DNA of 64,000 nucleotides, from NCBI GenBank assembly GCA_965217095.1, contig OZ244235.1:4488175-4552174 (forward strand), given 5' to 3'. Under the pieces are notes generated by a model that worked only from the letters and a program-made list of their open reading frames with translations, was not told the DNA's origin and ran no database searches. The translations under genes and the position numbers were made by a program. Each line of letters starts with the position of its first letter. Within the stretch, counting starts at the first letter, position 1. Origin of the DNA: Candidatus Latescibacterota bacterium (GTDB lineage Bacteria > Latescibacterota > UBA2968 > UBA8231). This document shows, in pieces, positions 2,139 to 26,137 of the stretch.

Positions 2139-2142
2139 CGGT

Positions 2143-5669: not shown

Positions 5670-6589
5670 CCACCCTCTTGAAAGGCTCCTCCTCGACCTC
5701 TACGCCGGCCCCTTTTTTGGGTAATAACATAGTTGACTCAGTAAGCGAGCGCCTTTATGATGCTCCGCGATGACATGGGTCATCCAGCCCTCCATTCCCC
5801 ATATGAAACTTGAAAAACGCTTTTCAAAGGTGCCATAAGATGTTATTAGACAATATAATAACGATCGTTTCTGGCCGATGAATATGGGTCATCCAGAGGG
5901 TGAAAGCATGAGAATGGGAGTTATTGTCAAAAGTTGTGGATCTGGAGGGACAGGGCCACCAAGGCGATCGACGGCATAAAGGGAGAGAGCGTATCCTCAG
6001 GGTGACCACAAACACACCCGTACCCCGTAGACGCGGGGAGGAGGATACGCTCGTGGAAGAATCTACGATCATCATGGACCATGGCGCGATAGCGCGAGGG
6101 CAGTGCGAGTCGGCGTTGGAGACGATCCTGCGTGAAGGCGGTCGTCGCTTGCTGCAGGAGGCTCTGGAGCTGGAGGTTGAGCAATACATCGAGCGCTTTC
6201 AGCAGTTGAAGCGTGAGAGCGGCCAGGGCCTGGTGGTACGCAACGGCTACCACCAGGAGCGCGAGCTGGTAACCGGCGCTGGGAAGGTCCCGGTGCGCCA
6301 ACCGCGCGTACACGACCGCAGGCCAACGGAGCGCTTCACCAGTGCCATCCTACCACCGTATCTACGGCGCACGCCCAGCATCGACGCCTTGATTCCGGCG
6401 CTCTGCCTGAAGGGTGTTTTCGACCTCCGCCTTCCCGGAAGCGCTGCAGGCGATCCTGGTGACGGTGTGGTCGGTTTATCGGCGAACAACGTCGTGCGAC
6501 TCAAGCAAGTCTGGGAGCAGGAGTTCCAGGCCTGGTCGAAGCGCGACCTGCACGGCAAGCGCTACGTCTACCTGTGGGCGGACGGAATC

Positions 6590-8499
6590 GTGCGCCACGA
6601 GGCGCCAGAGAACCGGGTGGGATGCAAGGACCCACCAACGGGCTGTCGCAGCAGCCTCGACAACGACAGAGTGGAGTGGCACCTTCAGACACTCCACGTC
6701 TGGCAAGCAAGACGGAATGGTGTAACCCGAAGTGAACCAATGATGGAACCCCCTTTAGCGGCCCGCCAACCCAAACCTGGTGGATAAGGGTTGGTACGCA
6801 ACGCACGTGGTCGGATATATGACCCGACTGCGACTCTGGGGAGGTGTGATACCCACCGAAGCAGAGGCCTTGGAGAATGCCTGCGGCGTACCCAAGGCGA
6901 AGTTGCGGGGGAAAAGCTGGGCACCTCCCCCGTCAAACGGTTCATGGTGAACGTGGGAACCGAGCCGAGTCCGACCGTTATCGGAGCAGCGCGCTGTCCG
7001 CTGTGGGGTTTGGCAAGGGGCGGAGCCTCTGTAGTAGTCCGCGAGCGGGAAAGCCGCTTACATGGCGAAGGGAGGCAGCAAGTTGCGCAGTGGGGTACTG
7101 GAAAAACAGGAGGACGCCGGTGAATGCCAGCGCTTCGTGGCCCGAGGCAGAACAAGCCCGTAATCGAGTACTGGAAATCCAGACCAAACTGCACCGTTGG
7201 GCTGTAGAGGATCGAAGCAAGTGCTTCGACGACCTGTTCAACCTGGTGTGTGACCCGGCGTTTTTGAGTGTAGCCTGGCGTCGGGTGCGCAGCAACAAGG
7301 GTGCTCGTTCGGCCGGAGTGGACGGACAAACGGCCTACTCTGTGGAGACGGAACGCGGCGAGGAGACCTTTCTCGCCGAGGTGCAGGTTGATCTGAAGAC
7401 CCGCAGTTTCCGGCCTCTGCCCGTACGCGAGCGGTTGATTCCGAAGCCTGGCACAACGAAGAAGCGTCGGCTCGGCATCCCAACCGCTCGGGACCGAGTG
7501 GTCCAAGCAGCACTCAAGCTGGTGCTCGAACCGATCTTCGAGGCGGACTTCAAGCCGTGCTCCTACGGCTTCCGCCCGAATCGGCGGGCTCAGGACGCCA
7601 TCGCCGAGATTCATCAATTCTGCTCCCGCTCTTATGAGTGGGTGGTGGAGGGCGATATCCGTGCTTGTTTCGATGAGATTGATCACGCAGCCCTCTTGGG
7701 CCGCGTGCGTCGACGTATCGGTGATAAGCATGTTCTGAGGCTTGTAAAAGCGTTCTGCAAGGCCGGTGTCCTCACGGAACAATCGGTGTTGCAAGAAAGC
7801 ACTTCGGGCACTCCGCAAGGCGGTATTCTCTCACCGCTGGTGGCGGGCACCGAAGCTGCAGCGTATGACCTGCGCGACCAAACGGGGGTGACTCTCACCC
7901 CCATGGGTCTGCACCTGTCGGAGACGAAGACCGCCATCATGCACATTAGCCGTGGCTTCGATTTCCTGGGCTTTCGCATTCAGAAGCGACGGAAACCGGG
8001 CACGGTTGGCGCACGCATCTATACGTGGCCAAGAAAGGAATCTCTGGCCCGGTTGAAGAGCACGGTGCGCGCAGTCACGAGAACGGGTCGGCAGAGGCCG
8101 TTGAAGAGCCTTCTGGGCCAACTACTTTCACAGTACGGGGTGTCGAAGGCCACTTTCAACTACGTGCGGGGCTTCACTTGGCGCCGCGTAGTGCATTGGC
8201 TGCGCCGCAAGCACCCGCGCTTTAATTGGAGGAAGCTGAAACGCCGCTACCTGCCAGGATGGTGGCCCACCGAGGACGGGATTGCTCTTTACAACGTCGG
8301 CGAAGTAGCAGTGACTCGTTACCGCTATCGATCGGCGCGGATCCCTTCTCCCTGGCCTGCGACAACCGGATGAGACTCTGCGGTCACACGGCACCTTGTG
8401 GAGAGCCGGATGCGTGGTAACGCGCACGTCCGGTTCGGAGGGCGGGCCGGAGAAACCCACATCACGCGTGTGGCGCAGGGCGCTCCGGTCCGACCCTAC
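6590..8499 (+). mobile_element. Group II intron, copy 1 (1910 bp). Inserted in the IS256 transposase ORF between the codons for WADGI and YFNV.
   Basis: 5' GTGCG at 6590. Domain V GAGCCGGATGCGTGGTAACGCGCACGTCCGGTTC at ~8405-8440. 3' end …CGACCCTAC at 8499. Splicing in silico restores a canonical IS256 transposase junction (WADGI-YFNVRLQ). It encodes a reverse transcriptase/maturase. Confidence 0.8.
7120..8373 (+). CDS. Group II intron-encoded reverse transcriptase/maturase (IEP), copy 1. It reads through, but a 29-nt deletion relative to copy 2 removes the domain-X LNPVLRGWANYF motif, so it is probably non-functional as a maturase.
   Basis: RBS AGGAGGA then GTG at 7120. RLGIPTARDRVVQAALKLVLEPIFEADFKPCSYGFRP, SGTPQGGILSPL and YSVETERGE RT motifs. 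Copy 2 has LLRQLNPVLRGWANYFHSTG where copy 1 has LLGQLLSQYG. Confidence 0.65.
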   Translation: MNASASWPEAEQARNRVLEIQTKLHRWAVEDRSKCFDDLFNLVCDPAFLSVAWRRVRSNKGARSAGVDGQTAYSVETERGEETFLAEVQVDLKTRSFRPLPVRERLIPKPGTTKKRRLGIPTARDRVVQAALKLVLEPIFEADFKPCSYGFRPNRRAQDAIAEIHQFCSRSYEWVVEGDIRACFDEIDHAALLGRVRRRIGDKHVLRLVKAFCKAGVLTEQSVLQESTSGTPQGGILSPLVAGTEAAAYDLRDQTGVTLTPMGLHLSETKTAIMHISRGFDFLGFRIQKRRKPGTVGARIYTWPRKESLARLKSTVRAVTRTGRQRPLKSLLGQLLSQYGVSKATFNYVRGFTWRRVVHWLRRKHPRFNWRKLKRRYLPGWWPTEDGIALYNVGEVAVTRYRYRSARIPSPWPATTG

Positions 8500-8769
8500 T
8501 ACTTCAATGTGCGCCTGCAGAAAGATCGCCCTTGCGTGCTGGTCGTGGTCGGCGCCACCGAGGACGGCCACAAGGAGCTGTTGGCAATCCAGGACGGCGA
8601 GCGAGAAAGCCATCTCAGCTGGCTGCACCTGCTGCAGGACCTGAAGGCTCGAGGCCTGAAAGAGCACTCCTTCCTGGCCGGCGCCGACGGCGCGTCAGGT
8701 TTCTGGAAGGCTCTGGAGGAGGCGTTGCCTGGTGCCCGCGCCCAGCAGTGTTGGGTGCATAAGACGGCC

Positions 8770-9902
8770 TGGGGATATCCATTTAACCGGAGTGCGTCGC
8801 GACCCCCATCAGTGTTCGGCCGCCGACCGCCACGGCCGGTTTGCCCCTGGGCGTTCCAGGCTCGTGGGATGCCCTCGCCGTTTGGGCGGCTCGGGGGGCG
8901 GCTTCCTCGGCCGTCGGCTGGCAATGAGATCCTGGAAACGCATCGGCTCGTGGGCCACGGCCAGCTCGAGCACGCGATAAAACACCATGCCGCGGCTGCG
9001 GGAGCGGCGGCGATTGAAGCGGAACACGAACTCGTTGAGGTAGTGGCTCATGTGGGTACTGTCGGCGGCCCCTTGATGCGTTCCCAGCAGCCACCGCTTG
9101 GCCAGTGAGACAACGCGGTGCACGGCGGGCAACAGCTTGTTGGGATCATCGCCCCGAGCGCGGGCCGCGCCCTGGCTGCGCCGATCGTGCTCGTAGCCGA
9201 GCTGAGCCAGTCCCTGATAAGCGGGCCACCCGTCGGTGATGATCGTCGAGCCCGGCTCGACGTGATCCATCACGAACGCGTGCAAGGTCTCGGCAGAGGC
9301 ATCGGCCAGTGGCGACATGCGGCACCGCCCCAATCCTCTCGGCTCATGAACCTCAACTGCGATACCGGTCAGCACCTTCTTGCCCCTAAGCGCGGCCACC
9401 GGCCAGCCCAGGCTCGGCGCCGCCGATGTAGGTCTCGTCCACCTGTACCGTCCCGCTCAACAGATCCCGACCGGGACGTACCAACACCGACCGCAGGCGG
9501 TGCGGCATGGCCCAGGCAGTCTGGTAGGAGCTGATCTCCAGTACTCGCTTCAAGCTCAACGCCGAGATCCCGTCTTTACCGGTGGCGAACAGCCAGCAGG
9601 CGGTGTACCATATCGTCAAGGGTGTCCGCGTCCGATCGAAGATCGTACCGGCCGTCACCGAACTGCGTGTCGAACACGCCGGACACATGAAGCGCCCATC
9701 GCCCAAGCGCCAACCGCCTTCGTGGCCGCAACTCGGACAGACGAAGCCGTCGGGCCACCGCAGCCATTCGAGGTAGTCCAGGCAGTCCGCATCGGTTCGA
9801 AACCAGGCTTGAAACTCGCCAACCGAGCCCGGGTAGTGCTTGCCAGCGCGAGGATACGCCATGCACTGAACATATGGTAACTCCGGTTAAATGGATACCC
9901 CC
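8770..9902 (-). mobile_element. IS1595-family insertion sequence (~1.13 kb) inserted into the IS256 copy-A transposase gene. 9-bp target-site duplication AAGACGGCC (8761-8769 and 9903-9911). Terminal inverted repeats TGGGGATATCCATTTAACCGGAG and CTCCGGTTAAATGGATACCCCC.
   Basis: Inverted repeats and direct repeat read from the sequence. The transposase is in two frames (9386..9862 and 8809..9399): N-terminal zinc ribbon CPSCGHEGGWRLGDGRFMCPAC…VQVDETYIGG, then C-terminal IITDGWPAYQGL…YLNEFVFRFNRR. One frameshift near 9390. Confidence 0.7.
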
Positions 9903-10447
9903 AAGACGGCCAATGTCCTCGACAAGCTGTCCCAGCGGGTGCGCCTTGATGCCAAGAGTCTGTTGCACGAGATGTACCTGGCGCCCGCCCGAGAGGATGC
10001 CCTGGCGGCCTACGACCGCTTCCTGGGCCGCTGCCAGGACAAATATCCCCAGGCCTGCGAGTGTCTGCGCCAGGACCGCGACGAGATGTTTGCCTTCTAC
10101 GATTTCCCGGCCGCCCATTGGGTGCACCTGCGAACGACCAACCCGATCGAATCGACCTTCGCCACGGTCCGCCATCGCACGCGCCAGACCAAAGCCTGTG
10201 GCTCACGCGTCACGGCTTTGACCATGGTCTTCAAACTGGCAACCCAGGCCGAAAGGCACTGGCGTCGTCTCAACAGCTATCAACGCATCACCCATCTCGT
10301 CGATGGCGACACCTTCACCGACGGTGAACTGCAACTCAAAAAAGCCGCATGGAAATCAGCCACGGTCGCCCGGATACGCTCTCTTCCGCGGCCCCGTCAC
10401 GCCATGGACAAACGACCTTCATCCACAACATTTGACAATATCTCTGA

Positions 10448-10893
10448 GAATGGGTTTTGGGGGTGGAATAAAGCTAGAATTTCATGGTGCAAAGGTGACC
10501 TCTGACAGTGGTCTTTTAGCGTATCGTGAACGTGATGATGCGCGGGGATTATTCGATGCCGTGTCGACGGCTTTATCGGACCCACGTACTGGCCGTAACA
10601 TCCAACATGCGATGGCTACCTTATTACGCCGATCCATCTATAGCCGTCTTGCGGGGTATGAAGATGTCAATGACGCCGAGCGTCTCTCGGTTGATCCTGT
10701 CATGAGAGCGATCACCGGGAAAAGGGCGCCCAACAAACAGGCCGCCAGCGTCAACACGATGGGGCGTTTTGAAACGGAGATACTGACTCGGCAAGAGCAT
10801 CTCAGAAACTTGTCAGATATCAATGGCAAGTGGGTTCAAAAAGCGAGGGGGAAAAACGAATTCCTTGCCGAGATCAAAGGCATATTGCCCTGA
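10448..10893 (+). pseudogene. IS1380/IS4-like DDE transposase, N-terminal ~148 aa only. It starts inside the IS256 right inverted repeat.
   Basis: IKLEFHGAKVTSDSGLLAYRE…NIQHAMATLLRRSIYSRLAGYEDVNDAERLSVDP, characteristic of IS1380-family transposase N-termini. Truncated; full length is ~450 aa. Confidence 0.4.
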
Positions 10894-11287
10894 CAGTACT
10901 TGGAGCGCTGTCCAAATTTCATAGCTGCGTGTGGCGATATCCATGGTTACGGGTTCGATGCGGACGAAGCCCTGGGTGACTTGCCAGGGGGGGTGGAAAG
11001 TAATAAAAAGTTGGTTTCCGCCAAACCGTCCGCCGGCCAGAACACTTGTAAGCAATTGTCATGGAGTCGCCCAAAAAAGACAGTCAGACGGCAATCCGTC
11101 TGACAGCATGCGAGCCGCCCGGGCAGAATCCACAGAATGTGGGATCAAGAATTGGCGGTACCGGCCCGGAAAAACCCAAGATCCAGTGAGTTTGCAGGCC
11201 ATTCGAAAGGAAAATAATGCGAATTGAGGCTAATATCTGGTTGGCATCGGCATCCACCCGGAAGACACAGCATGGCCAGTCACGCCG

Positions 11288-11482
11288 TCATGTCCGGCGA
11301 GAGCCTGCCCCTGGTCGGCAAAGCTGCTCGGGCACCGACGCCATCGCACGACGGCAGGCTACGCCCACCTCCTCGCTCTCATGGTCGAATACCATCCGAA
11401 CCGCCCGCTCGCGTACCTCGGGGGAATACCTGTGTCGTTGTGCCATGACTCCAATCCTCTCAAGAAAAGGAGTCTCCGGCAA
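11288..11482 (-). pseudogene. IS3-family (IS6110/IS51-like) orfA N-terminal remnant.
   Basis: QRHRYSPEVRERAVRMVFDHESEE resembles IS3-family OrfA (…RRYPPELRERAVRMV…). Only ~60 aa, then degenerate. Confidence 0.3.
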
Positions 11483-11552
11483 GTCCGGGGAGATTCACTC
11501 CTTCATGTGAAGCGCTCGACACGAATGACTGCTGTTTTGTGGCTTGAAGAGA

Positions 11553-12530
11553 CTATGGCTGAGAGGACCATGGGATTTCCACGGTGTAGTGCCAGATACG
11601 GGAGACTCCGAGGCTAGTCTGTCGATCGTGCGTGGCGCAGATCGGGTAGAGCATGCTGACAGGAAGACCGTAGCACTCCGTCAGATAGAAGATCGTAAAT
11701 CCCAGAGCCTGAGCTTTCGTCGCCAGAGGACAGATATACATATTAGAGAACCTATGCTCCTTGGCTATTTCACTTAGCACGCCGGCTGTGATGAACGGGT
11801 CATAGGCCGGGGCAAAGAAGTTGCCAGGTCTATTCCCCACATCGACTCCTACGATCTCAGAAGCGCGGTACGCCCTCAGCACGTTCTCTTGGTACATCTC
11901 CGCTCTGAGTGATGGAAGACCAAACAGCATCAACTTGCGGGAGTTTTTTTTGTAGTCTGCGACCTGTGCTATGAGTTCGTCATCGTACCCTGCCCCGATG
12001 ATGAGCAGGTCGTTCGACGTATCAGCAGTGTGAAGGCCCTCGAACCCCACGACTTGGCGGACTTCCTTGACGACTGCATCTGAGAAGCGAGTCTCTTCCT
12101 TTCTGGCGTAGTAGGCCGGCTCAGCGAAAAGGACGTCAAATTTCTCCAGGCCGAGTTCCAGCAACCATCTTAATAGGAACATCATATACGGTTTGACAAA
12201 ACCGGTTATGTCTATACATACCCTATTGCCACTGACGTCATCGATGCCTGCCGAAGCGAAGCACTGCTTGATGAACTCTGCCTCGTCGGAACAAGGAATA
12301 GCATGGCATTGTCCACTTGGATGCTCGTGGTCGGCGTATTTATAGTCCGGGAGCATCAGCCAATGCTTGGAATCAGCGCGCACGTTGTCATATACCGTTT
12401 GGACTCTTTCACTAGAGTTGTATGCAGAAATGAACAAGTCCCAGTCCAGTTGCCACTGGGACTGCGGATCAAGATTACCCTTGTAGTAGATCGAGTAGTC
12501 AGCCATCGAAGAGATCTTTCTGCTCATCAC
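11553..12530 (-). CDS. Hypothetical protein (325 aa). Fourth and last gene of the lower-GC MTase–NTPase operon. Rossmann-like stretch NDLLIIGAGYDDELIAQVADY.
   Basis: Coherent, non-low-complexity ORF. Its start overlaps the stop of the upstream NTPase gene. GC is lower than the surrounding sequence. Confidence 0.55.
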   Translation of the reverse strand: MMSRKISSMADYSIYYKGNLDPQSQWQLDWDLFISAYNSSERVQTVYDNVRADSKHWLMLPDYKYADHEHPSGQCHAIPCSDEAEFIKQCFASAGIDDVSGNRVCIDITGFVKPYMMFLLRWLLELGLEKFDVLFAEPAYYARKEETRFSDAVVKEVRQVVGFEGLHTADTSNDLLIIGAGYDDELIAQVADYKKNSRKLMLFGLPSLRAEMYQENVLRAYRASEIVGVDVGNRPGNFFAPAYDPFITAGVLSEIAKEHRFSNMYICPLATKAQALGFTIFYLTECYGLPVSMLYPICATHDRQTSLGVSRIWHYTVEIPWSSQP

Positions 12531-14538
12531 CCGGCGTTGTCGTGGGCCTCTTCTCGATGCGCCGTCCGAACTCAGGAGCCGTCATCCTATCCACCCGCGA
12601 GGCCAAAACTTCGGGAAAACGATCACTGTGTGTTTCGTCAAATATGGCGTCTGCTTCGGAGGCTTTGAGAGCGATTGCCCCCCTCCGCGAAATTGGGAGA
12701 TCCCATCGCGGTGCGAGCATGGGAACGAGCTGAAGTTTCGCATCCACCCGGGGAGTGTTCCTGTCCTTCTGTCCTCCTGACACATCCACGAGGAGCGACC
12801 AGCTTATCGCGAGGTGGATGTTAGAGCGGCTGCGCTCTGAGATGCTTGCCAAATCGACGGAGAAGGCACACAGAGAGCACTCCGATGGCTTGTCTGAGAA
12901 CCGAATTGCTCTGAACAGTGTAGCTAGACGCTCCACACCCTTTAGAACCTCAGGAGATCTAGCACCAGGAACTCTGGCGTCGCGGTAAAACCACTCCGAT
13001 GCCTCACGCACCCCCTCAGTCTGTGTGGCATGGCCCATCTGTGTCGATGAGTAAGGATCCTCACCGTTGAAGATCGCCCAGCGATGTGTGTGCTTAAGAA
13101 TCGTGAGTAATGCACGCGGTAGCCCACAGGACATGTCAACGAAGGTCTTGAACCCAAGATACCTTTGGGGTAGCTGGAGTTCGCGCAGCAATTGGGCGAT
13201 TAGGTCCCTTTTGAAGTGGGCCAGGGCATGGTGATGTCGGCCCTTCGAGCCTGTGTCGTCGCGGTAGGCGTGTGCGCTAATAGCTATTTCACGGGCGGAT
13301 TCGCGCAGGTCCCTGTTGGCACTCCAATCCTTGTATAGCAAAAAAGTGCTAGTCTTCTCCAATAGGGGAGCCCCCGCTATGCGCAGTGCATCAATCACCA
13401 TGTCAGCGTCTCTAGCCTCAGTGAGACCCGGAGCTATCTGGAGCTCAATTCCTCTTAATAGCTTATCCCTCAGGGCCTCGAAGTACGGCTGCCTATCGGG
13501 CAAGCGTGTTGTACCGGTACCTTGTGCATCCCACCCACTTCCGGGCAAATAGAAGAGTCCCATGGCATCGACAGGATCTTCTTGCATTGGAGTGGGCAAA
13601 GCGACTCCAGACTTGAGAAGCCGTCTTGTGCAGAGCATTGCGGCAAACTTAGCGTAATTGGGCCTTTTTCTGACTCGATCGTCCAGCCGCATCTCCTCGA
13701 ACTCAGATCCCTCTCTGTTGACCTCTTCCGCACTCAATGTTTCGTACGTCCTGATTCCGTATCTCCGGGCACCTACTCTGAATGAACAGGGGGCCTCCCG
13801 CTCTCGGATTAGCGTGTTGACGTATCTCTGATGGTTAGCGGTTAGGTTCTCTAACTCGTCAATCAGGTATAAGAAAAGCACAGACTGGAGTCCGGGTATC
13901 TCCTCCGCCAGTATCTGCGGCACGCCATACACGAGTCGTCCAGGGCTAGAGAGGATCCTTGAGTTTATCTTGCCGGTGATAGGGGCGTTATTGACGGCCA
14001 AGTCGAGCTCCCGCTGCAGCGACTGAAATGCGGAGAGCAGCTCGGACAGGGCCTTGGGCTCCTGACCAAGCGGAGCATCGAAGCACGTGCCAATTATGCG
14101 GGAGACGATCCGCTCCTCCTGCAAATCAGTCTCAGTTTCTACTAGGGCCTCAGCTACCGCAGCAACGACGAGCTGAGAGAGCCACAGGTCGCTGTAATAA
14201 GCGAACAAGCTTGCCCATGCCTCATCTGAAAGCCCACGTCCAGAGAATCTGCTCGCATTCAAGCCCGTACACCGTAGATAGATTCCGATATATCCCTCTT
14301 TCGCGATGCCCTGTAACGCTGAGTCATGGCACCGCAGCCTCTGTAGGGGGAAAGAGAAGTATCGCATCAGGTGGGTCTTACCGCTTCCCTTGCCCCCGAG
14401 CAGCAGCATCGGCATCGGGGAGGTAGGCTTGAGGAACTCCTCGAATCCGCCTCCTGGCATGTCTACCCAGTAGTCATGGATCTGCTCGTCCGAGAAATCG
14501 ACTGCTTGAGTGACATTGAATGGATTGTCAACGCGCAT
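12499..14538 (-). CDS. P-loop NTPase (679 aa) with widely spaced Walker A and Walker B motifs, reminiscent of ABC/AAA_15-21-type or ORC-like defence ATPases.
   Basis: Walker A LLLGGKGSGKTHLMRY near aa 48. Walker B LFLYLIDELENL near aa 240. Translationally coupled to both neighbouring genes. Confidence 0.6.
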   Translation of the reverse strand: MRVDNPFNVTQAVDFSDEQIHDYWVDMPGGGFEEFLKPTSPMPMLLLGGKGSGKTHLMRYFSFPLQRLRCHDSALQGIAKEGYIGIYLRCTGLNASRFSGRGLSDEAWASLFAYYSDLWLSQLVVAAVAEALVETETDLQEERIVSRIIGTCFDAPLGQEPKALSELLSAFQSLQRELDLAVNNAPITGKINSRILSSPGRLVYGVPQILAEEIPGLQSVLFLYLIDELENLTANHQRYVNTLIREREAPCSFRVGARRYGIRTYETLSAEEVNREGSEFEEMRLDDRVRKRPNYAKFAAMLCTRRLLKSGVALPTPMQEDPVDAMGLFYLPGSGWDAQGTGTTRLPDRQPYFEALRDKLLRGIELQIAPGLTEARDADMVIDALRIAGAPLLEKTSTFLLYKDWSANRDLRESAREIAISAHAYRDDTGSKGRHHHALAHFKRDLIAQLLRELQLPQRYLGFKTFVDMSCGLPRALLTILKHTHRWAIFNGEDPYSSTQMGHATQTEGVREASEWFYRDARVPGARSPEVLKGVERLATLFRAIRFSDKPSECSLCAFSVDLASISERSRSNIHLAISWSLLVDVSGGQKDRNTPRVDAKLQLVPMLAPRWDLPISRRGAIALKASEADAIFDETHSDRFPEVLASRVDRMTAPEFGRRIEKRPTTTPGDEQKDLFDG

Positions 14539-15494
14539 CAGGGAGTGAACTCCATCTTTGGGTACCTCCGGAAGATAGGTACCCAGGGTTTATCTTCTTC
14601 ATCGTACCAGAAGATCGGAAGCGTGTTATCTGGCGTGTTGTGATGGAAGCCGAGGAGTAGCTGTCCGTTTTCAAATCCTAGGGCGTCGTCATCGGTGAAA
14701 AGGTCACTGCCGTACTTTCGACACATAGCCTCGGTTCGCTGACGGTCGACCATGGAAGAGGCTGCAGGGAAGTACCGAGACACTTGGCCAAAGCATTTGT
14801 AGGAAGAATCCAGTACATGAATAGCCCTAACCTCATCAAACAGGCTGTTGGCGATGATATTGTCACGCCCCTCCTCGGTTGCGAACAGGAGGTGGTAATC
14901 GACCGTGGCATCTGGGTTGGCGTGCTTAAGATCGGCCAATACTTCCTCGGAGTATGTGACTGCCTGTGTTCCACTTCCACAGAAGTCATCAATGAACACA
15001 TAATGCGAAACATCAGGGAATCGGACTTCTGCGACGCCCTGAGAACCGTACCGCCGGAACACCTCGTGCGTATGCACGAATAGCTCCTTTGGTAGTCGGT
15101 TCTCCTGTCGATAGTAGTAAAGGAGATGGCACCCGCTCTCCGACGGATTTCCCATTCCTAGGAATCTCGTTCTCTGCAGCTCATACTCATACTTCCCATC
15201 CAGGAAGGAGACGTCGACTGTGTTTGCGTTCTGACGTCGAGCGCTCTGCACGATCGGATACTTGTAAAGATCTCTGTGCATCGCTTGCAGTAACTCGCGC
15301 ACCTCGTGGCTACCAAAGTACATGAACTGGCTGAGCAAGAAGAGTGCGTGAAAGCGTTCACCCGGTTCGTTGGGGAGATCAGCAGAGAAATTGCTTAGCC
15401 ATTCAGTGATGCTGTTCTGAGTTGCTCTGTCTTCCCAAACGGTCTCGTTCAGAATCTTCAGCTTCCGCCTCAGGTCCTCGACATATGAGTCCAC
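14538..15494 (-). CDS. Hypothetical protein (318 aa) with a phosphoribosyltransferase-like / MTase-motif-I-like signature (YVFIDDFCGSGTQA).
   Basis: hhhhDD-x-CGSGT resembles the PRTase PRPP-binding loop. It also mirrors the DPFCGSGT motif I of the upstream MTase. Its start overlaps the NTPase gene. Confidence 0.5.
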   Translation of the reverse strand: MDSYVEDLRRKLKILNETVWEDRATQNSITEWLSNFSADLPNEPGERFHALFLLSQFMYFGSHEVRELLQAMHRDLYKYPIVQSARRQNANTVDVSFLDGKYEYELQRTRFLGMGNPSESGCHLLYYYRQENRLPKELFVHTHEVFRRYGSQGVAEVRFPDVSHYVFIDDFCGSGTQAVTYSEEVLADLKHANPDATVDYHLLFATEEGRDNIIANSLFDEVRAIHVLDSSYKCFGQVSRYFPAASSMVDRQRTEAMCRKYGSDLFTDDDALGFENGQLLLGFHHNTPDNTLPIFWYDEEDKPWVPIFRRYPKMEFTP

Positions 15495-15506
15495 GCTCTA
15501 TCGCCC

Positions 15507-16874
15507 TTACCCTTTCTGGTATACGGCTGTGAGCTCAACTGGAATCAGTGCGGCGGTGTGATTGCGCTTCGTCATGAGTTGGCGAGATCGGATCTTGTTC
15601 TCAAAAACACATGCGAGGTCAAAGCCCAGCGATTCCGCTATCTCACGGATGTACTCTGTGGCGCGGAAGCGGCGACCACAGACCAGGTTATCGCCCAGTG
15701 TCAGGACCAGATGGCCACCGGGACGCAGAACTCTCCACGCCTCCTGCAGGCTTGTTCGCATCTCGCGCAGAAAACTTCCGGCAATGTGGGCTCGCAGGGG
15801 GTACTCGGTATACACCTGAGCCAGCAGGTCATCGGCTGATACGACACCTGTTGGCAGGAAGCTCTCCAATTCTGATGTAGGGTAGTGCTCACAGCCGATA
15901 GTCTTCGACTCAAGTTTTCGCAAGCCACTGGAAGCGGCGAGGTCCAGCCATCCGAGGCTGAGGCTAGTAGACCTCACATATTTCTGAGCCCCCGCGTAGG
16001 GCGGCGAGGTGAGGATAAGGTCCACGGCTTCATCCGAGAGACGACCCGTTCCATTGGTTGAGAAAGGAGCTGGGAAGTGCAATTGTCGAGCATCCACAGA
16101 GATGTGACACGGCGGCGGGTTTGGAAGGACTCGGTAGAGTGCCGCCATTCGCTTGAGGTTGACCTCTACACACCGCCGGAACACTCCAAAGACATTGACG
16201 CGACGCAATTGGCGAATGTGACGATCAGTCCTTTCGCGCAAAGGATGCGCGGGAGGGTACTGTCCTTCGCGAAGCCTAACGGGCACCGAGAGCCGTGGAT
16301 CCGCAAGGCTGGTCTTTCGAGCGCAGGACGAAAATGCAACCTGAAAGAAGCGAATGTATGCATCACTCCGGAGCGACATGATACCCTCACGGATCCTGCA
16401 GAGCTGGCGAATCACATGCGGATGGTACCAGTAGTCGATGTTGACCACATCGGGTAGAGGCTGTGTGGCACGGTCGGGGATGTTCCGTTGCAGACAATTA
16501 AATGATCTCCTTAACGCCGAGGGAGACAGTGGCTGTGTCTTCGCGGCTGCCATTAGCCGGGCGAACGGGTTCGTGTCGGAGCCTAGAGCAGGTCTTCCGG
16601 AGAGTAAGGCTTCGAGGAGCACGGTCCCGGAACCACAGAAAGGGTCCAGCACGACACCCCCAGGCGGGCAAACCTCTGGGCACTTGAGAAAGAAGTGCGG
16701 GACATGTACGAGTAGTTTGGCCGGATAGGGGTGTAGGAGATGCGTATACCTGTCAGGCGACCGAAGACCGTCAACGGCTGACCGGAAATCAAAGGGCACA
16801 GGACTGCCCTCTGTCCTGTACTGCTCGACAGCGTTACGGAGTAGCTGATTTGTGCTGGGGCAAGGATCAGCCAT
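15507..16874 (-). CDS. DNA methyltransferase (N6A or N4C), alpha-like motif order X–I–TRD–IV. First gene of the four-gene operon.
   Basis: HPYPAKLLVHVPHFF (motif X-like). GVVLDPFCGSGTVLLEALLSG…SDTNP (motif I). VDLILTSPPYAGAQKY (motif IV, SPPY). Confidence 0.65.
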   Translation of the reverse strand: MADPCPSTNQLLRNAVEQYRTEGSPVPFDFRSAVDGLRSPDRYTHLLHPYPAKLLVHVPHFFLKCPEVCPPGGVVLDPFCGSGTVLLEALLSGRPALGSDTNPFARLMAAAKTQPLSPSALRRSFNCLQRNIPDRATQPLPDVVNIDYWYHPHVIRQLCRIREGIMSLRSDAYIRFFQVAFSSCARKTSLADPRLSVPVRLREGQYPPAHPLRERTDRHIRQLRRVNVFGVFRRCVEVNLKRMAALYRVLPNPPPCHISVDARQLHFPAPFSTNGTGRLSDEAVDLILTSPPYAGAQKYVRSTSLSLGWLDLAASSGLRKLESKTIGCEHYPTSELESFLPTGVVSADDLLAQVYTEYPLRAHIAGSFLREMRTSLQEAWRVLRPGGHLVLTLGDNLVCGRRFRATEYIREIAESLGFDLACVFENKIRSRQLMTKRNHTAALIPVELTAVYQKG

Positions 16875-16948
16875 CGCTCTCGTAAGAATGGGTCAGCCAA
16901 GGATACATAGTGACGGTGTCTGTCCGATGCGGCAATTCGACATTCGGA

Positions 16949-17167
16949 TTAGGCATCCGCTGCAATGTACGCCAAAACGGACCGCCTCGCATCCGTAGCT
17001 GTGCGGATGCGGAGGGTATGTTGATGCGTGAGTCTCAGGGTTGGCCTGCTGGTTGAGTAGCCGGGGCCAGTTGCCCAGCCCCGGCCCTCACCAGAGCCGG
17101 ACTTCAGGCTCAACGCCGAGATCCCATCCTTGCCCGTGGCGAACAACCAGCAGGCCGTGAACCACAC
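16949..17167 (-). pseudogene. Fragment of an IS1595-family transposase gene. Same family as the 8770..9902 element.
   Basis: WFTACWLFATGKDGISALSLK matches WYTACWLFATGKDGISALSLKRV in the 9386..9862 ORF. The local DNA is similar to 9540-9610. Confidence 0.45.
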
Positions 17168-17194
17168 GGTCAGCGGCCCCCTGTGTCAGGATAG

Positions 17195-17462
17195 TTGTCG
17201 CGTGAATTGTCCCGCCGAACTGAGATGGGGGCGAGGGAGAATTCCCCGATGCCATACACGGATGGTTTCAAATCAAGAATGATCCAGAGGCTGGCAGCAC
17301 CCGATGGCCCCAGCGCTACGCAGACTGGCGCGGGAGGTGGGTGTGCCGCAGAGTACCCTGTCGCGCTGGCTCCGGCACCAGCATCATCGCCGCCGAGCGC
17401 CAGAACCGCACCTGTTACGCTATGGAGATAGACCAAGGCGAACCATGATATGACCCGGGAAA
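17195..17462 (+). pseudogene. HTH transposase OrfA-like (IS3/IS481-type) remnant with a frameshift.
   Basis: MPYTDGFKSRMIQRLAAPDGPSA, then in an alternative frame LRRLAREVGVPQSTLSRWLRHQ (helix-turn-helix). Confidence 0.25.
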
Positions 17463-17909
17463 AGTGGACAGTGGTTGAAGCCGCTTTCTGCAGCGATAGC
17501 CGTTCAAAAAGGGCCGGGGAGGACTCTCATGAGAAAAACGGTTGAAACGATGCCCCGGACGGTCCTGGTGGCGGCCCTGTCGGTCCGCTACAAAGGCGGA
17601 GATGATCGGCAACCCCGGAAGCGGAGGAGTTCCGGGCGGTCATGACGCACATCCGCAGAGAGGCCCGGCGCCTCCACGCCGAGCGGCTCGCGGCGGGCAT
17701 TGACGACGGCTGAGCGAACACCGCCGTTTCTTGCACGGACATAAGTCCCGGTTCTTCCGCGACTTATAGCCTATAACACATAAATCCTTCCAAAGCATGT
17801 TAAGGACAAGATTCGCCTTGCTTTCCGTTCGGGAACGAGCATTCATGTGTGTGAACACAACAACCCGATTCCATTGCCGGACAAGGGATTACTGGAATCA
17901 AGGAGAACC

Positions 17910-18165
17910 ATGGACCTGCGCGAAATCGATTTCGGGGTCGAGATAGGGACGGTCAGACGAACACGCAAACGCGTGGTCCAGGCCATCCAGTCGGTGGTGG
18001 GCGGCGAGGTCGTCGACGAGCAGGGGCGGACATGGAAGGTGACTCGGCGTTCCGGAGCGGCAGACCGGCGCCCGAGGCGGAATCATCCACAGAGGCCGGG
18101 CCGCAAACCCGGCCTCCGGCTCTTGGGGAGGACGCCAACGCCCAAACCGAAGGAGAAACGGCGCA
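17910..18165 (+). CDS. Small hypothetical basic protein (MDLREIDFGVEIGTVRRTRKRVVQAIQSVVGGEVVDEQGRTWKV…). The 3' limit is uncertain.
   Basis: SD AGGAGAACC then ATG at 17910. The ORF runs to 18251 in an Arg-rich tail that overlaps the next gene. Confidence 0.25.
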
Positions 18166-18669
18166 ATGAGAGTGCGGATCAGGAACACCGCCCTGGACGG
18201 CAAACCGCTCCAGGGCGAAGGGGATATCTTCACCGGCAAGACCGACCTTGAGGTCGTCCGGGCCATGCGGGGAGCGACGCTCTTCTCCGATCAGAACACG
18301 CTCGAGGACTACGTCGACATGGTCCTGCGCAACACCAGGATGCTCGCCGGCATCGACCTGATCGTCAAAGGCGACACGCCCGAGGAGAAGGCTTGCACCC
18401 TCCTCGCCTCCATGATCGATCACGGCTTGGCCGAACACCTCGAAGACGAGCCGCCAGCGCCGGTCACCGTGCCCGCCGCCGTCTGGCACGGCCTGGAGGC
18501 GGTGAAGGACTCCGGAACCACCAACATGCTCGACCGGCCCGCGGTCATCAAGATCGCCGAATTCCTCGGCTTTCACGAGACGGCGCGATGGATCGAGGGC
18601 CATCACGGGCAATATTCCGAAGGGCTGTTTCGGGGCTTCGTGGTCGATTCCGAGGAAGGGAAGTTCTGA
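18166..18669 (+). CDS. Hypothetical protein (167 aa).
   Basis: SD AAGGAGA ~10 nt upstream of ATG. Coherent composition. No recognised motifs. Confidence 0.4.
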   Translation: MRVRIRNTALDGKPLQGEGDIFTGKTDLEVVRAMRGATLFSDQNTLEDYVDMVLRNTRMLAGIDLIVKGDTPEEKACTLLASMIDHGLAEHLEDEPPAPVTVPAAVWHGLEAVKDSGTTNMLDRPAVIKIAEFLGFHETARWIEGHHGQYSEGLFRGFVVDSEEGKF

Positions 18670-19485
18670 TGTACGGACAGGCGGGCATCATCCTGGGCGG
18701 GAAAAGGCGCCGCGCCGGCGAGCGCGACCATCTCCCCTGGCTAGTTCACACGGCTCCTCGCGTTCAGCGAGCGGAGGGGGCCGCACACACGCCACGGGCG
18801 TGGCCTGGCTCAAGCGCCACGGGCCGGCACAAGCTCTTCAAGCGGCCGGTATGGGCCGGTCGGTTCGTTCTCCGACAAGGCGTTCCACGAGGTCCTGGCC
18901 GGGATCGACAACCGCACCACGCTGCTCTTGGATCACACCCGCCGGCGCACGCGCGGCGACGAGAAGATCAACGAGAACAACCGCCCGATCTGGGCAGGCG
19001 ACATTCTCGGTACCCACAACGGCACCATCTACAACGCCAACTACCTGTTCCGGCGGTCCAGGCGTCACCGCTTCGCCGAGGTGGACAGCGAGCTGCTCTT
19101 CGGGCTTGCCGCCCGGGCCGGGCGAAACGGCCGAAACGACATGGAGCGCTTCAAGGGCCGCCTCAAGCTCTGCCGCGGGCAGATGGCGGCGGTCATGGCC
19201 TCGCGGCGCGATCCGGAGACCACCCTCGAGCTGCGCATCCATCGGCGGCATCGGGCCATCCTCTATGCCTCCGACGCAGCGTACTTGGACGCGGTCCTGG
19301 ATGACGAGCGCGGCTGGCGCGAACTGCCCGTTCCCCCCATGAGCCTGATGGCGTTCCGGCACCGCGACCTGACGGACTGCTCGATGGAGCCGTTCGAATT
19401 CGTTGCACAGGCGAAGCGGCGGAAGAAGCCCGCGCTGGCGGAGATCATCGATGACTGGGAGAGAACGGTCCACGGGACCGGGTAG
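18669..19485 (+). pseudogene. YafJ-type class-II (Ntn) glutamine amidotransferase-like gene. Nucleophile Cys2 replaced by Tyr, plus a frameshift near 18740.
   Basis: MYGQAGIIL start (canonical MCG…). After the frame change: FTRLLAFSERRGPHTRHGRG, LDHTRRRTRGDEKINENNRPIWAGDILGTHNGTIYN and VDSELLF. These match the YafJ/GATase-2 HTR…HP…HNGxIxN…SDSE pattern. Confidence 0.45.
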
Positions 19486-19502
19486 ACCCCGAAGGAGAAC
19501 AC

Positions 19503-20003
19503 ATTGGACCTGCTGAGACTCTTCGTCTATGGCATCCTAAAGCGCGGGTACTGGAACCACGACCCCTTCTGCGAAGGCGTGCTGGAGATCCGGGACGCGT
19601 AGATTCGGGGCCGGCTGTATGAGGGGCCGGGGTTCCCGCTCCTCGAGGTTCCGGACGAGGACATCCTTGCCTGTGGGACCGCCGAACCGTTAGCCGACGT
19701 GGCCACACAGGCGCGCCTGTCCGACCGGGTGGGGCGGATAATCCCCCCGGCCGGTCCCCGGAAGCGCGACACTGGGCGCCTGGGGCACCGTGTACGGGGA
19801 GCTGCTGACCTTCGACGACCCCGACCTCCCGCCTCCCCGCCATCGACCGCCTCGAGGGCTTCCGGCCGGGCGGCCACAGTCTCTACTGGCGCGTGCTGGT
19901 CACGGCGACGGTGAACGGCGCCCGCGAGCTCGCCTGGGTCTACACGGTCGAGACGACCCGCATCAAACGGCGTCGCATCGTGTCCGGCTGCTGGCCGGAG
20001 TAG
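19503..20003 (+). pseudogene. Gamma-glutamyl cyclotransferase (GGCT/AIG2)-like gene with an in-frame TAG (19599-19601) and at least two frameshifts.
   Basis: LDLLRLFVYGILKRGYWNHDPFCEGVLEIRDA*. Then RLYEGPGFPLLEV, VYGELLTFDDPDL and IDRLEGFRPGGHSLYWRVLVTATVNGARELAWVY in shifted frames. Confidence 0.45.
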
Positions 20004-20390
20004 CTCTCCCCGCCTCACCACGGCCGATGCCGGCCGGCCCCTTCCCGCGAATGTGATTGACGAGTCGTCTTCCGATATTTACTTACGGAACAACCGGTTA
20101 AGGGCTTTCCCTCAACTCTCTGTAAGCCTGGAGAAGCAAGAAGCTAATCCCTAGAAAAATTTGTTGTAGTAGGTTTTTATCTCTATGTTTAAGGCATCTG
20201 GCACTCAGGCAGAACCCGTATGTCGGGTAGCCTGCCTAATACAACAACCTATCAACCTGGATTAGAGGTCGCTCCTCAAATCCAGGTAAATAAGCAGGAA
20301 ATTCTCGCCTACTGCGTGAGCTACAGAACAACTACCCGGCACCCACATACCGGGTGCCGAATGCAGTTCACTCAGCATAGGAGGGATGCG

Positions 20391-20864
20391 ATGTTTAGGT
20401 TATTGAAGTTCAAATTAGTAGCAATATTACTGGTCTTAGCCATTTTAACACCTACTGCCTCAGCACTCGCACAAGTAGGAATCCAATTGGCTCAAGTCAA
20501 TCCGACTTCGAGTGAGAAATTAGCTCAGACCAGTATTCCGACCTTCAACGAAGAATTTGAAGGATTTGCTGACGGAAAAAGACAAGCAGAGATGACAAGG
20601 GCCAGCAAGTTAAGAACAGGATTTCTTGCCGGAGGGCTCTTTGGACTTGTTGGAACTGGCATAGGATACTGTATGGTCGGTCCGAATGACATAGAAGTAA
20701 ACATTCTGACACAGATTTCCGCCAAGAGTGTAGAATACCAATCAGGATTTAGAAAGGGTTGGGACAAAGAGACCGAGAAGGAGAAACGATCTTCATTCTT
20801 AAAGGGCGGACTATTAGGGAGTGTTGCCGGTGCCATCCTGGTTTTAGCCTTTCAGAGTGAATAA
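20391..20864 (+). CDS. Small secreted/membrane glycine-zipper protein (157 aa) in an AT-rich islet.
   Basis: SD AGGAGGG. Signal peptide MFRLLKFKLVAILLVLAILTPTASALA. Hydrophobic Gly-rich segments GFLAGGLFGLVGTGIGY and LKGGLLGSVAGAILVLAF. Local GC ~40%. Confidence 0.45.
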   Translation: MFRLLKFKLVAILLVLAILTPTASALAQVGIQLAQVNPTSSEKLAQTSIPTFNEEFEGFADGKRQAEMTRASKLRTGFLAGGLFGLVGTGIGYCMVGPNDIEVNILTQISAKSVEYQSGFRKGWDKETEKEKRSSFLKGGLLGSVAGAILVLAFQSE

Positions 20865-21365
20865 ATCATCAGCTTAAATAGTGGTGCGAGGGACTTTGAG
20901 ATCCCCCGCACCAGAGGTCCAATTCACCCCCAAACCAAGGGAAATAGCAAATTGGAACCTCATATTCCAGACATATGACTACCTCGATTAGCCGATGCAA
21001 TAGTCAAAGACTTTTGTAGGGAGGAGTGGTAGAAAGCTAGTACATTCCAAGTCCAACGAAAGAGGCAGCGAAGAACCACTGCCCTGCCGCTCTCCCACTT
21101 CCCCGACAGAGAGACGGTTACAAATAGAACCTTGGAATCCTAGTAGGGACATCAATGTCCGCCACTCCTCCCATATTTACCAACCCTCGCTTTAAGGAAC
21201 GCTTGAAGCAGCAAGTACTTGGATTTCAGTCTTGGTCGGTCAGAGTTCAAACAAAACAATCCAAGCGAGTTGTCCGAAGAATAAAATAGAGACAGTATAT
21301 CCACCCTCCCATAAAAGCGCGTTACCGGCGCAGAGGGGGTTAAAGGATATACCGTCTCTTCTATA

Positions 21366-21899
21366 TCAAGCCGCAACTTTGAAGCATCCTTCAAGGAAAG
21401 TTTCAAAAGCATTTGGATTGCGGCGACTATTGTATTTATAGCAGCATTCGGCAATATACAAAGGTGCGTATTTCTTGCAATAGCGGTGATGTGTCCCATA
21501 CCAGGCACGCTTAAACGAAGCCCAAAAGCCCTCCATAGTATTGGTGTGGATTCCCCTTTTGAAGACGCCTTGACTTCGGGTAAATACCGAGTGTCGCATA
21601 AACGGACGGACGGACCAGTATGATTTGAAGCTATCAGTTATCAAATGCGACCCCTCAGGGTTCACAGCCTCTTTGATAAACTTGACGATACCCTCTCCAG
21701 ACAAGTCCTCCGCAACACGGGCAACAACCTTTCCTCCACGTTGAACAACGCCTAAAACGGCCAATTTCGAGGTCCCTCTTCCACGTGGAGAATTTGACCT
21801 GTTCATATGAGGGTAGCGATTTAGAGGTTTCCCGCCAATGTAAGACTCGTCTGCTTCAACAATCCCGTGCAGCATGACGAAGCCTTGTTTAGAGGCCAT
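21366..21899 (-). pseudogene. IS1595-family transposase, C-terminal ~177 aa fragment. The N-terminal zinc ribbon/HTH is missing.
   Basis: GIVEADESYIGG…HLITDSFKSYW…HTNTMEGFWASFKRAWYGTHHRY…YIAECCYKYNSR aligns with the intact IS1595 transposase at 25245..26126. Confidence 0.55.
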
Positions 21900-21964
21900 T
21901 CCGGCAGTTTCTTACCACCCGTTTCGGCATCAGCCCCAAAAGTGGAAACTTTGGACCGAAATGG

Positions 21965-26126: not shown

Positions 26127-26137
26127 GAGCGCTTGTT

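Follow-up and report, generated by a model that had tools for sequence, protein, structure and literature searches.

Introduction

Phosphoribosyltransferases (PRTases) serve as effectors or toxins in several known defense systems. In ShosTA, the PRTase disrupts purine metabolism, and a PRTase of the ShosT kind can block replication via disturbed nucleotide metabolism (PMC11961720). Validated PRTase effectors or toxins are also part of DS-32, Ophion, retron type III, and PsyrTA. Here we describe a cassette in which a PRTase of a different family is encoded together with a DNA methyltransferase (MTase), an AAA+ ATPase, and a CARF protein. The cassette lies in a 64,000-nucleotide stretch of DNA from a Candidatus Latescibacterota bacterium (hereafter, the window), and we found no description of the four-gene unit as a whole in PADLOC, in the NCBIfam anti-phage models, among solved structures, or in accessible papers. 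We put the probability at roughly 0.55 that the block represents, in intact form, a self-contained conflict module of the immune type that moves horizontally and has a nucleotide-pool effector.

Organization and Genomic Context of the Cassette

The cassette is an intact, tightly packed block of four uninterrupted open reading frames (ORFs) on the minus strand, as an earlier note on this DNA had described. The first gene (15507 to 16874) encodes an alpha-class N6/N4 amino-methyltransferase of 455 aa, followed by a PRTase-CE phosphoribosyltransferase of 318 aa with a GTG start (14538 to 15494), the predicted effector, and an ORC/Cdc6-like AAA+ ATPase of 679 aa (12499 to 14538). The fourth gene (11553 to 12506) encodes a putative tandem-CARF sensor (CARF6-family, Can1/SAVED-like) without a fused effector; its longest ORF begins with a GTG at 12530 (11553 to 12530; 325 aa), but homolog support favors the ATG at 12506, which yields a protein of 317 aa. 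All motifs quoted in the note were recovered, namely HPYPAK (aa 48), DPFCGSGT (aa 77), and SPPY (aa 290) in the MTase, YVFIDDFCGSGT in the PRTase, and GGKGSGKT and LYLIDELENL in the ATPase.

The four genes had been called overlapping, which is correct for two of the three junctions. The PRTase and ATPase genes share 1 nt (TGATG), and with the ATG at 12506 as its start the CARF gene extends 8 nt into the ATPase gene, whereas the MTase stop is separated from the PRTase GTG start by a 12-nt gap. The GC content of the block, first estimated at about 50%, measured 0.546 (0.518 to 0.572 per gene), lower than that of the flanks (0.626 and 0.649); the whole window is a patchwork that averages 0.584.

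Insertion sequence (IS) remnants, which lie outside the system, mark both boundaries, in agreement with the earlier description. Directly downstream of the cassette, at its left boundary, is an IS3 orfA-like HTH remnant (11288 to 11482, minus strand) with a weak Pfam match to HTH_Tnp_1 (E 0.0022), and further IS debris on this side consists of IS4-like, IS256, and IS1595 fragments. Directly upstream, the right boundary is formed by an IS1595-like remnant (16949 to 17172, minus strand) that gave no Pfam match. It carries a 71-nt direct repeat with 85% identity to the IS1595 Zn-ribbon fragment at 9548 to 9618, and the two have the peptide W(F/Y)TACWLFATGKDGISALSLK in common.

Relatives of the cassette reside on rhizobial and Moraxella plasmids. 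The 145 nearest neighbors of 77 cassettes belong to 131 Pfam families, integrases included, and are mostly non-defense genes. Taken with the GC content below that of the flanks and the IS remnants, the plasmid-borne relatives and varied neighbors demonstrate that the cassette is horizontally mobile.

The Four Proteins

The MTase matched Pfam N6_N4_Mtase (1.3e-11) and, over nearly its full length, the PADLOC MTase_II model PDLC03322 (2.6e-44). Its motif order, X-I...TRD...IV-VIII, is that of the alpha class and is permuted relative to the solved beta-class MTases, which confirms the class assigned earlier. Motif IV (SPPY) is unchanged in 77 of 77 MTase homologs and motif I (DPFCGSGT) is likewise invariant as D-P-F-x-G-x-G-T, while a variable stretch lies between the two at approximately aa 200 to 280. 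As a lead only, SPPY presumably suggests N4-cytosine as the target, with N6-adenine possible.

The PRTase is covered over its full length by the Pfam family PF24390 (PRTase-CE). Its fold is that of the type I PRTases, and the acidic DD/PRPP loop, VFIDDFCGSGT, is intact. The closest PADLOC models are PRTase_III-A, named for type III-A CRISPR loci; no ShosT or PsyrT PADLOC model matched, no solved defense PRTase was among the structural matches, and the protein is absent from a 2025 list of defense-associated PRTases. By analogy with the validated systems, the PRTase is likely the toxic or effector component of the cassette.

For the ATPase, the Pfam model PF24389 (ORC-CDC6-like) was matched with an E-value of 1.6e-124 and a score of 417 bits (cut-off, 27), and aa 5 to 624 aligned to model positions 1 to 571. 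This full-length match displaces the ABC/OLD/AAA_21-like assignment proposed earlier, for which no model matched, and the spacing between Walker A and Walker B, previously given as about 190 aa, is approximately 173 aa. Walker A (GGKGSGKTH, aa 48 to 56) and Walker B (D227-E228) are invariant in 19 aligned sequences. There are at least 896 homologs, one of which is named 'ORC-CDC6 family AAA ATPase' at NCBI. No separate wHTH match to Pfam was found in the ATPase.

The fourth protein does have the Rossmann-like fold predicted in the earlier note, but it is not an unknown; it is a tandem-CARF protein, with two CARF domains in one chain and a match to the PADLOC CARF6 model PDLC01914 (E 3.5e-103). 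Two of the four initial protein assignments, those of the ATPase class and of this double-CARF protein, were thus wrong or incomplete. The closest structural matches of the protein are cOA-binding CARF and SAVED proteins. The CARF pocket motif, [DN]-x-[ST]-x3-[RK] after strand 4, is present as DITGF(V/I)(K/R)PY, in which residues D99, T101, G102, F103, and P106 do not vary across 24 sequences. We regard the protein as a putative nucleotide sensor; Pfam and PADLOC searches of the cassette revealed no signal synthase.

Conservation as a Unit

For the earlier note, a lack of joint conservation in other genomes would have counted against its reading. In 77 of 80 genome loci, all four genes were present with order and strand unchanged, and the three exceptions are at contig ends; the 80-genome sample includes one archaeon (a Heimdallarchaeote) and covers more than 15 phyla. 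The genes are therefore co-conserved as a unit, and the same order in unrelated genomes places the arrangement far beyond chance. The median intergenic distances across cassettes are 3, 4, and -4 nt. Pairwise-identity correlations among the PRTase, ATPase, and CARF proteins are 0.63 to 0.70, and those of the MTase with the other three are 0.39 to 0.45, all higher than the permutation maxima of 0.15 to 0.24. The PRTase, ATPase, and CARF proteins co-evolve tightly, the MTase less so.

No complete locus was without an MTase. A distant Acinetobacter subtype retains PRTase-CE (7e-44), ORC-CDC6-like (6e-134), and CARF6 (9e-126) proteins, and its MTase is a non-orthologous gamma-type N6 enzyme encoded at the opposite end of the triad. 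Since no complete locus lacks an MTase and the Acinetobacter triad has a replacement, methylation is probably integral to the cassette.

Approximately 38% of the cassettes adjoin a gene for ThyX, dUTPase, a MazG-like protein, or a Nudix protein (by locus, ThyX 18, Dut 4, MazG/dUTPase_2 4, and Nudix 4; L087 additionally carries dUTPase_2). These genes are found either upstream or downstream, 0 to 330 bp from the cassette (a single ThyX gene, at L033, is farther off, at about 1.5 kb), and mostly on the same strand; three ThyX, one Dut, and one Nudix gene are on the opposite one. On S. meliloti pCpl (L085), the operon reads thyX-MTase-PRTase-ATPase-CARF.

Proposed Mechanism and Alternative Explanations

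If the cassette is an immune-type module, for which the case is circumstantial, it would be laid out as effector, NTPase, and sensor, like a split STAND/NLR protein, plus a methylase that always accompanies them. The methylase would mark resident DNA as self. The CARF-gated ATPase may then respond to an invader cue, either DNA that lacks methylation or a ligand derived from a nucleotide and bound by the pseudo-dimeric pocket of the CARF protein. ATP-dependent assembly would switch on the PRTase, which could perturb the nucleotide or PRPP pool and so stall DNA replication, as ShosT does for purines. The dUTPase, MazG-like or Nudix pyrophosphatase, or ThyX genes beside many relatives point to a deoxyuridine or thymidine nucleotide, which may be the PRTase-linked product or the CARF ligand; the accessory enzymes would provide a threshold or render leakage harmless.

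The same accessory genes could instead belong to a DNA (hyper)modification or epigenetic module, an unlikely reading in which DNA bases or precursor nucleotides would be the substrates of both MTase and PRTase, the ATPase and CARF proteins together would direct or regulate the reaction, and ThyX, Dut, MazG, and Nudix enzymes would supply or sanitize pyrimidine precursors. In its favor, the cassette has a strong and recurrent association with thymidylate and dUTP enzymes, MTase motif IV does not vary, and there is no nuclease or classical killing effector and few defense genes nearby. However, a CARF sensor with an NTPase switch is a hallmark of triggered immunity rather than of constitutive modification. 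About 60% of cassettes, the present one included, have no accessory nucleotide gene, and where present these genes encode interchangeable house-cleaning enzymes rather than one biosynthetic pathway. Viral contigs, on which hypermodification pathways are often found, are also nearly devoid of the cassette (1 locus in 2.9 million). The resemblance of the fourth protein to cOA-binding CARF/SAVED proteins, the PRTase_III-A models nearest to the PRTase, and a cassette without its own signal synthase would all suit an effector module working in trans, with CARF sensing cOA or cyclic nucleotides made by a type III CRISPR-Cas or CBASS system elsewhere in the genome and the ATPase switching the PRTase on. 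We consider this improbable: the 25 commonest Pfam families among the 145 neighbors of 77 cassettes include neither cas nor CD-NTase, plasmids and IS-flanked sites carry the cassette by itself, and the obligatory MTase and the dUTP/thymidylate enzymes would be left unexplained.

The chances are similarly slim that the cassette is an addiction or toxin-antitoxin-like module that stabilizes mobile elements, its PRTase being a toxin restrained by the other proteins or by methylation. Such a module would have no primary anti-phage role, although it is compatible with one in defense. PRTases are toxins in ShosTA, PsyrTA, and DS-32, the cassette is found on plasmids, beside integrases, and amid IS elements, and its MTase is similar to the protective partner in addiction modules of the restriction-modification kind. 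Yet a set of four large genes that co-evolve and include a dedicated ligand sensor and an ATPase switch surpasses known addiction modules in complexity, and many copies are chromosomal beside housekeeping genes, for example at L002, which adjoins infC and rplT. Fainter still is the prospect of atypical restriction-modification, in which unmethylated DNA would be cleaved or damaged by a cryptic activity of the PRTase or of the ATPase's C-terminal half. An MTase that is obligatory but replaceable by another MTase family is in line with this, as are its lower co-evolution, which fits specificity diversification, and approximately 350 ATPase residues past the AAA+ core with no assigned function. 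Against it, none of the four proteins matched a nuclease family (Pfam, PADLOC, and NCBIfam, E up to 1), the ORC-CDC6-like model spans the ATPase end to end, and neither the CARF sensor nor the link to nucleotide enzymes has a part in classical systems.

Comparison with Known Systems

In PADLOC, the matches were at the component level only (MTase_II, PRTase_III-A, and CARF6), and proteins of BREX, DISARM, Septu, Gabija, and ShosTA were absent, as the earlier note had anticipated for all of these but Gabija; all NCBIfam anti-phage models were far below cut-off. The description of the cassette as undescribed stands for the system but not for its parts, as PF24389, PF24390, and PDLC01914 already exist; the paired Pfam families and the PADLOC CARF6 model indicate that curators have catalogued these components. 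Classical type I to III restriction-modification was rejected, with no nuclease, ResIII, or HsdR family matched by the three non-MTase proteins in Pfam, PADLOC, or NCBIfam.

What the cassette has in common with ShosTA, PsyrTA, retron type III, DS-32, and Ophion is its likely effector, a protein with the type I PRTase fold. The partners in those systems are DprA-like, NADAR, RT, or rSAM/PHP proteins, whereas here they are the MTase, AAA+, and CARF proteins, and the PRTase is of a separate family (PF24390). The pairing of a PRTase toxin with a DprA-like antitoxin, as in ShosTA and PsyrTA, does not occur in the cassette. Similarly, the match to the DS-32 model NF053875 (DS32_1) was confined to the C-terminal 40 residues and scored 21.3 bits (cut-off, 250), and there is no NADAR domain. 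Unlike the effectors of type III CRISPR-Cas and CBASS (Can1, Csm6, Card1, and Cap4/Cap5), the CARF protein has no fused effector, and Cas10 or CD-NTase was found neither in the cassette nor among the 25 commonest Pfam families of its nearest neighbors; a signaling locus of this type was rejected, since the cassette encodes neither synthase.

BREX likewise combines a methylase (PglX) with an ORC/Cdc6-type AAA+ ATPase (BrxC/BrxD) and no evident nuclease, so both systems suggest self-marking by methylation without classical restriction. The cassette differs in having a PRTase and a CARF sensor and no PglZ, BrxA, BrxB, or BrxL, and its MTase is a small alpha-class SPPY enzyme rather than PglX. None of the four proteins gave a match to a BREX model of PADLOC (E up to 1), and the block contains no PglZ-like ORF.

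Compared with STAND/NLR proteins of the Avs/NACHT type, the modules of the cassette are separate proteins, its ATPase belongs to PF24389 and not to NACHT or NB-ARC, its putative sensor is a tandem CARF and not TPR, WD40, or LRR repeats, and a DNA methylase is obligatory. The order of PRTase, ATPase, and CARF nevertheless mirrors the effector-NTPase-sensor order of these single-chain proteins, and the ATPase comes from a branch, ORC/Cdc6, with a relationship to STAND. One relative (P0455) is a NACHT NTPase that carries a CARF6 domain at its C terminus, which unites NTPase and sensor in a single chain.

Organization and conservation of the cassette

The four minus-strand ORFs described in the earlier note were all present at window 11553–16874. 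In gene order, they encode a DNA methyltransferase (MTase; 15507–16874, 455 aa), a PRTase-CE protein (14538–15494, 318 aa, GTG start), an ORC/Cdc6-like AAA+ ATPase (12499–14538, 679 aa), and a tandem-CARF sensor (11553–12530). The CARF gene measures 325 aa as its longest ORF and 317 aa from an ATG at 12506; because all homologues (MIDYTIFYK...) agree with the latter start (MADYSIYYK), we consider the protein to be 317 aa long. The genes had been described as overlapping throughout, which holds at two junctions, where the PRTase and ATPase genes share 1 nt (TGATG) and the ATPase and CARF genes share 8 nt when translation begins at 12506, whereas a 12-nt gap separates the MTase TAA stop from the PRTase GTG start. 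The GC content of the cassette is 54.6%, compared with 62.6% (window 1–9000) and 64.9% (17200–20000) in the flanks; the contrast claimed previously, about 50% versus about 65%, was therefore correct in direction but too large. With these minor corrections, the observation is real. GC content is a patchwork across the window, averaging 58.4%, and a promoter and terminator scan of the cassette block returned matches at or under shuffle expectation.

A profile search of species-representative genomes with the ATPase retrieved 80 loci, 77 of which contain the MTase, PRTase, ATPase, and CARF genes in that order on one strand; the remaining three, without the full set, are contig ends. The cassette is strongly conserved as a unit, and the claim of an intact operon was borne out. 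Median spacings at successive junctions are 3, 4, and −4 nt. Carriers span more than 15 bacterial phyla and include Planctomycetota, Acidobacteriota, Latescibacterota, Desulfobacterota, alpha-, beta-, and gamma-Proteobacteria, Bacteroidota, Actinomycetota, Chloroflexota, Nitrospirota, Gemmatimonadota, Verrucomicrobiota, Armatimonadota, Spirochaetia, Chlorobiota, Poribacteria, and one Heimdallarchaeote (an Asgard archaeon). Among cultured organisms, the cassette occurs in Sinorhizobium meliloti (plasmid pCpl), Rhizobium, Bradyrhizobium, Moraxella osloensis, Pedobacter, Herbaspirillum, and Colwellia, so experiments are feasible now in tractable hosts.

Alignments of 71 cassettes disclosed pairwise-identity correlations of 0.63–0.70 among PRTase, ATPase, and CARF, compared with 0.39–0.45 between the MTase and the other three (label-permutation maxima, 0.15–0.24), indicating that the former three form a tighter core. 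The MTase is also poorly conserved at approximately residues 200–280. Its looser tracking and this variable stretch would fit diversified target specificity or an occasional exchange of the methylase. In a Desulfovermiculus MAG (L018:4102–7001), the PRTase gene ends early, near residue 200, and about 2.9 kb precedes the ATPase gene; this cassette was apparently disrupted by an insertion.

Features of the four proteins

Two of the four protein assignments made earlier, those of the third and fourth proteins, were corrected. The MTase matches Pfam N6_N4_Mtase and PADLOC MTase_II (2.6e-44). Its motif I (DPFCGSGT) comes before motif IV (SPPY), the two being separated by a variable stretch; this is the alpha-class order, permuted relative to the beta-class structures matched in the PDB. 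The SPPY motif is invariant in all 77 homologues and suggests, as a lead only, N4-cytosine methylation.

The third protein had been read as an ABC/OLD-like NTPase. This assignment did not stand, as Pfam PF24389 (ORC-CDC6-like) covers the protein end to end (1.6e-124) and the only other matches, to generic AAA models, are weak; ABC, OLD, and AAA_21 were ruled out. The Walker A and Walker B motifs are invariant and lie approximately 173 residues apart. When compared with PDB sequences by sequence and by profile, PRTase, ATPase, and CARF gave no significant match.

At 50% identity, the CARF family forms 802 representative clusters in a set of 1.84 billion proteins, and its members are almost all standalone proteins of about 320 aa. 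One relative of the CARF protein (P0455, 787 aa) carries a NACHT NTPase at residues 235–387 and a C-terminal CARF6-type domain at 594–781; it thus unites in one chain an NTPase and a sensor, which the cassette encodes as separate ATPase and CARF genes. This fusion supports the view that the CARF protein acts as the sensor of the NTPase switch. A second protein (P0494, 344 aa) looks like a chimera of an MTase fragment and CARF, and may be an artefact.

Nucleotide-metabolism partners and a distant subtype

A nucleotide-metabolism gene adjoins the cassette in 29 of the 77 loci: ThyX in 18, and a trimeric dUTPase (Dut), an all-alpha MazG/dUTPase_2-type pyrophosphatase, and a Nudix protein in four each, one locus (L007) carrying both Dut and ThyX. 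These genes are located 0–330 bp from the cassette, except for one ThyX about 1.5 kb away (L033), on its upstream (MTase) or its downstream (CARF) side (for example, L009:9989–10969, L026:3605–4606, L041:10008–10454, L039:2409–2891, and L018:1453–2085). Most share its strand, the opposite strand being used by three ThyX, one Dut, and one Nudix gene. Some overlap the cassette; on S. meliloti pCpl (L085:2715–3626; locus tags LJD24_RS18030–18010 for thyX, MTase, PRTase, ATPase, and CARF), thyX ends with a stop codon that overlaps the start of the MTase gene. The same positions are occupied in turn by ThyX and by house-cleaning pyrophosphatases of three unrelated folds, which implies that the partners share a role centred on dUTP, dUMP, and dTMP. 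The window copy is without a partner, and a search of the window turned up no remnant of a former ThyX, Dut, MazG, or Nudix gene.

A distant subtype on an Acinetobacter contig (CAKLQF020000018.1; L087:3347–8805) encodes dUTPase_2, PRTase-CE, an ORC-CDC6-like ATPase, a CARF6 protein of a different PADLOC subfamily (PDLC01913), and, at the far end of the locus, a gamma-type N6 methylase that is not related to the alpha-class MTase. Here, a non-orthologous methylase has taken the place of the usual one, and the dUTPase link persists. Both features argue for methylation and deoxyuridine chemistry as integral parts of the system, not incidental ones. The record is labelled phage; its flanks (tdcB, cstA, tRNA-Val) look chromosomal.

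Mobility and genomic surroundings

The 145 nearest neighbours of the cassettes represent 131 Pfam families, among which integrases recur. Copies reside on conjugative rhizobial plasmids and on one Moraxella plasmid, annotated as hypothetical in RefSeq, while viral carriage amounts to one in 2.9 million viral contigs (an IMG/VR locus). Two "Acinetobacter phage" records with the cassette look like chromosomal contigs. The diverse neighbours and integrases, the plasmid copies, and the near-absence from viral contigs together indicate a self-contained, horizontally mobile, cellular module.

IS remnants flank the block in the window, in agreement with the earlier note. The left side holds an IS256 transposase gene with an IS1595 zinc-ribbon fragment inside it, together with an IS4-like fragment and a weak remnant of IS3 orfA; an IS1595-like remnant lies on the right. 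The IS1595-like remnants at 9548–9618 and 17102–17172 form a 71-nt direct repeat (85% identity) that encloses a 7.5 kb segment with the cassette and further IS debris. At 25245–26126 lies an IS1595 transposase gene that appears intact. Two IS256-family transposase gene copies (5924–10505 and 28647–31844) are both interrupted by a group II intron, with RT ORFs at 6877–8373 and 29456–30799 and Rfam Intron_gpII matches of equal score at 8401–8499 and 31009–31107; the first copy is split further by an IS1595 fragment at 9386–9862.

The same locus was recovered on an ENA metagenome contig (L004, ctg299958_2x_l) with 98.6% DNA identity to window 11166–17153 and one additional IS256 insertion on the downstream side. 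The MTase and ATPase of this copy look frameshifted, probably reflecting indel errors of a 2x-coverage contig and not real decay. Elsewhere in the window, low-GC patches (0.47–0.50) at 20001–22000 and 26001–28000 hold ORFs without a Pfam match (20220–20864 and 27690–28298) that could be other acquired genes, and two adjacent minus-strand tRNA genes (40486–40574 and 40608–40691) could be a hotspot at which the region's mobile DNA integrates.

Novelty of the cassette

PADLOC v2, a check proposed in the earlier note, returned component matches only and assigned no described system; its BREX, DISARM, Septu, Gabija, ShosTA, and PDC models were absent, consistent with the earlier claim that the genes do not fit BREX, DISARM, Septu, or ShosTA. 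No model of NCBIfam release 20 exceeded its cut-off (anti-phage DS32_1, 21 bits versus 250). In a 2024 survey of 132 systems, PsyrTA and ShosTA are the only PRTase-containing ones; a 2025 list of defence PRTases omits the cassette's PRTase family, and neither a type III effector census nor a polyvalent-protein paper mentions the cassette. Our literature search found no paper on it, within a reach that did not extend to the 2020 CARF census (Makarova et al.), which may already note the CARF6 neighbourhood. Because of that census, and because the components already have catalogue entries, as adjacent Pfam families and PADLOC CARF6 models, we describe the cassette as uncharacterised as a unit, not as categorically new. 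The earlier interpretation is partly supported: this is an intact, co-conserved, MTase-linked system without a match to a described one, for which defence is a putative role.

Proposed mechanism and comparison with known systems

PRTase, ATPase, and CARF follow the effector-NTPase-sensor order of STAND/NLR-type immune proteins; unlike these, the cassette gives each function its own gene, the three being translationally coupled. In other systems, PRTases have been validated as effectors or toxins: Ophion, retron type III, and PsyrTA use them, and DS-32 pairs one with a NADAR protein. With BREX, the cassette has in common an MTase and an ORC/Cdc6-type ATPase, with no nuclease. The data show the folds, motifs, linkage, and associations; the STAND-like order, the PRTase effectors elsewhere, and the BREX theme suggest a mechanism, every step of which is inferred. 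The methylase would mark resident DNA, and the ATPase-CARF pair would detect a cue from the invader, which could be DNA lacking methylation or a nucleotide ligand. The PRTase could then be switched on to perturb nucleotide or PRPP pools, while accessory dUTP/thymidylate enzymes may set the threshold or clear leakage products.

The anatomy could also be that of a DNA-modification module outside immunity, a restriction-modification system with a cryptic nuclease, an addiction module, or an effector acting in trans on type III CRISPR or CBASS signals. Each of these explains less of the anatomy than marking, sensing, and PRTase activation would. A bolder reading, to which we give about a one-in-seven chance, is CARF-gated immunity without a cyclase. 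Its ligand would be a deoxyuridine-type or PRPP-derived nucleotide, produced by the cassette PRTase or built up during infection; dUTPase, MazG, Nudix, or ThyX would set its level as counterparts of ring nucleases, and methylation would license self. If so, nucleotide second messengers or danger signals would gain a new class, and thymidylate/dUTP metabolism would be tied to immunity in a new way.

The cassette poses a testable question, namely what the CARF sensor binds when no cyclase is present, and the recurrent dUTPase, ThyX, MazG, and Nudix partners offer deoxyuridine/thymidine nucleotides as a chemical lead. Were the cassette a defence system, it would add a widespread architecture, present in more than 15 phyla of bacteria, in an Asgard archaeon, and on plasmids of rhizobia. 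It would also join three themes so far studied separately: self-marking by methylation as in BREX, nucleotide sensing by CARF/SAVED domains as in type III CRISPR and CBASS, and PRTase effectors on nucleotide pools as in ShosTA.
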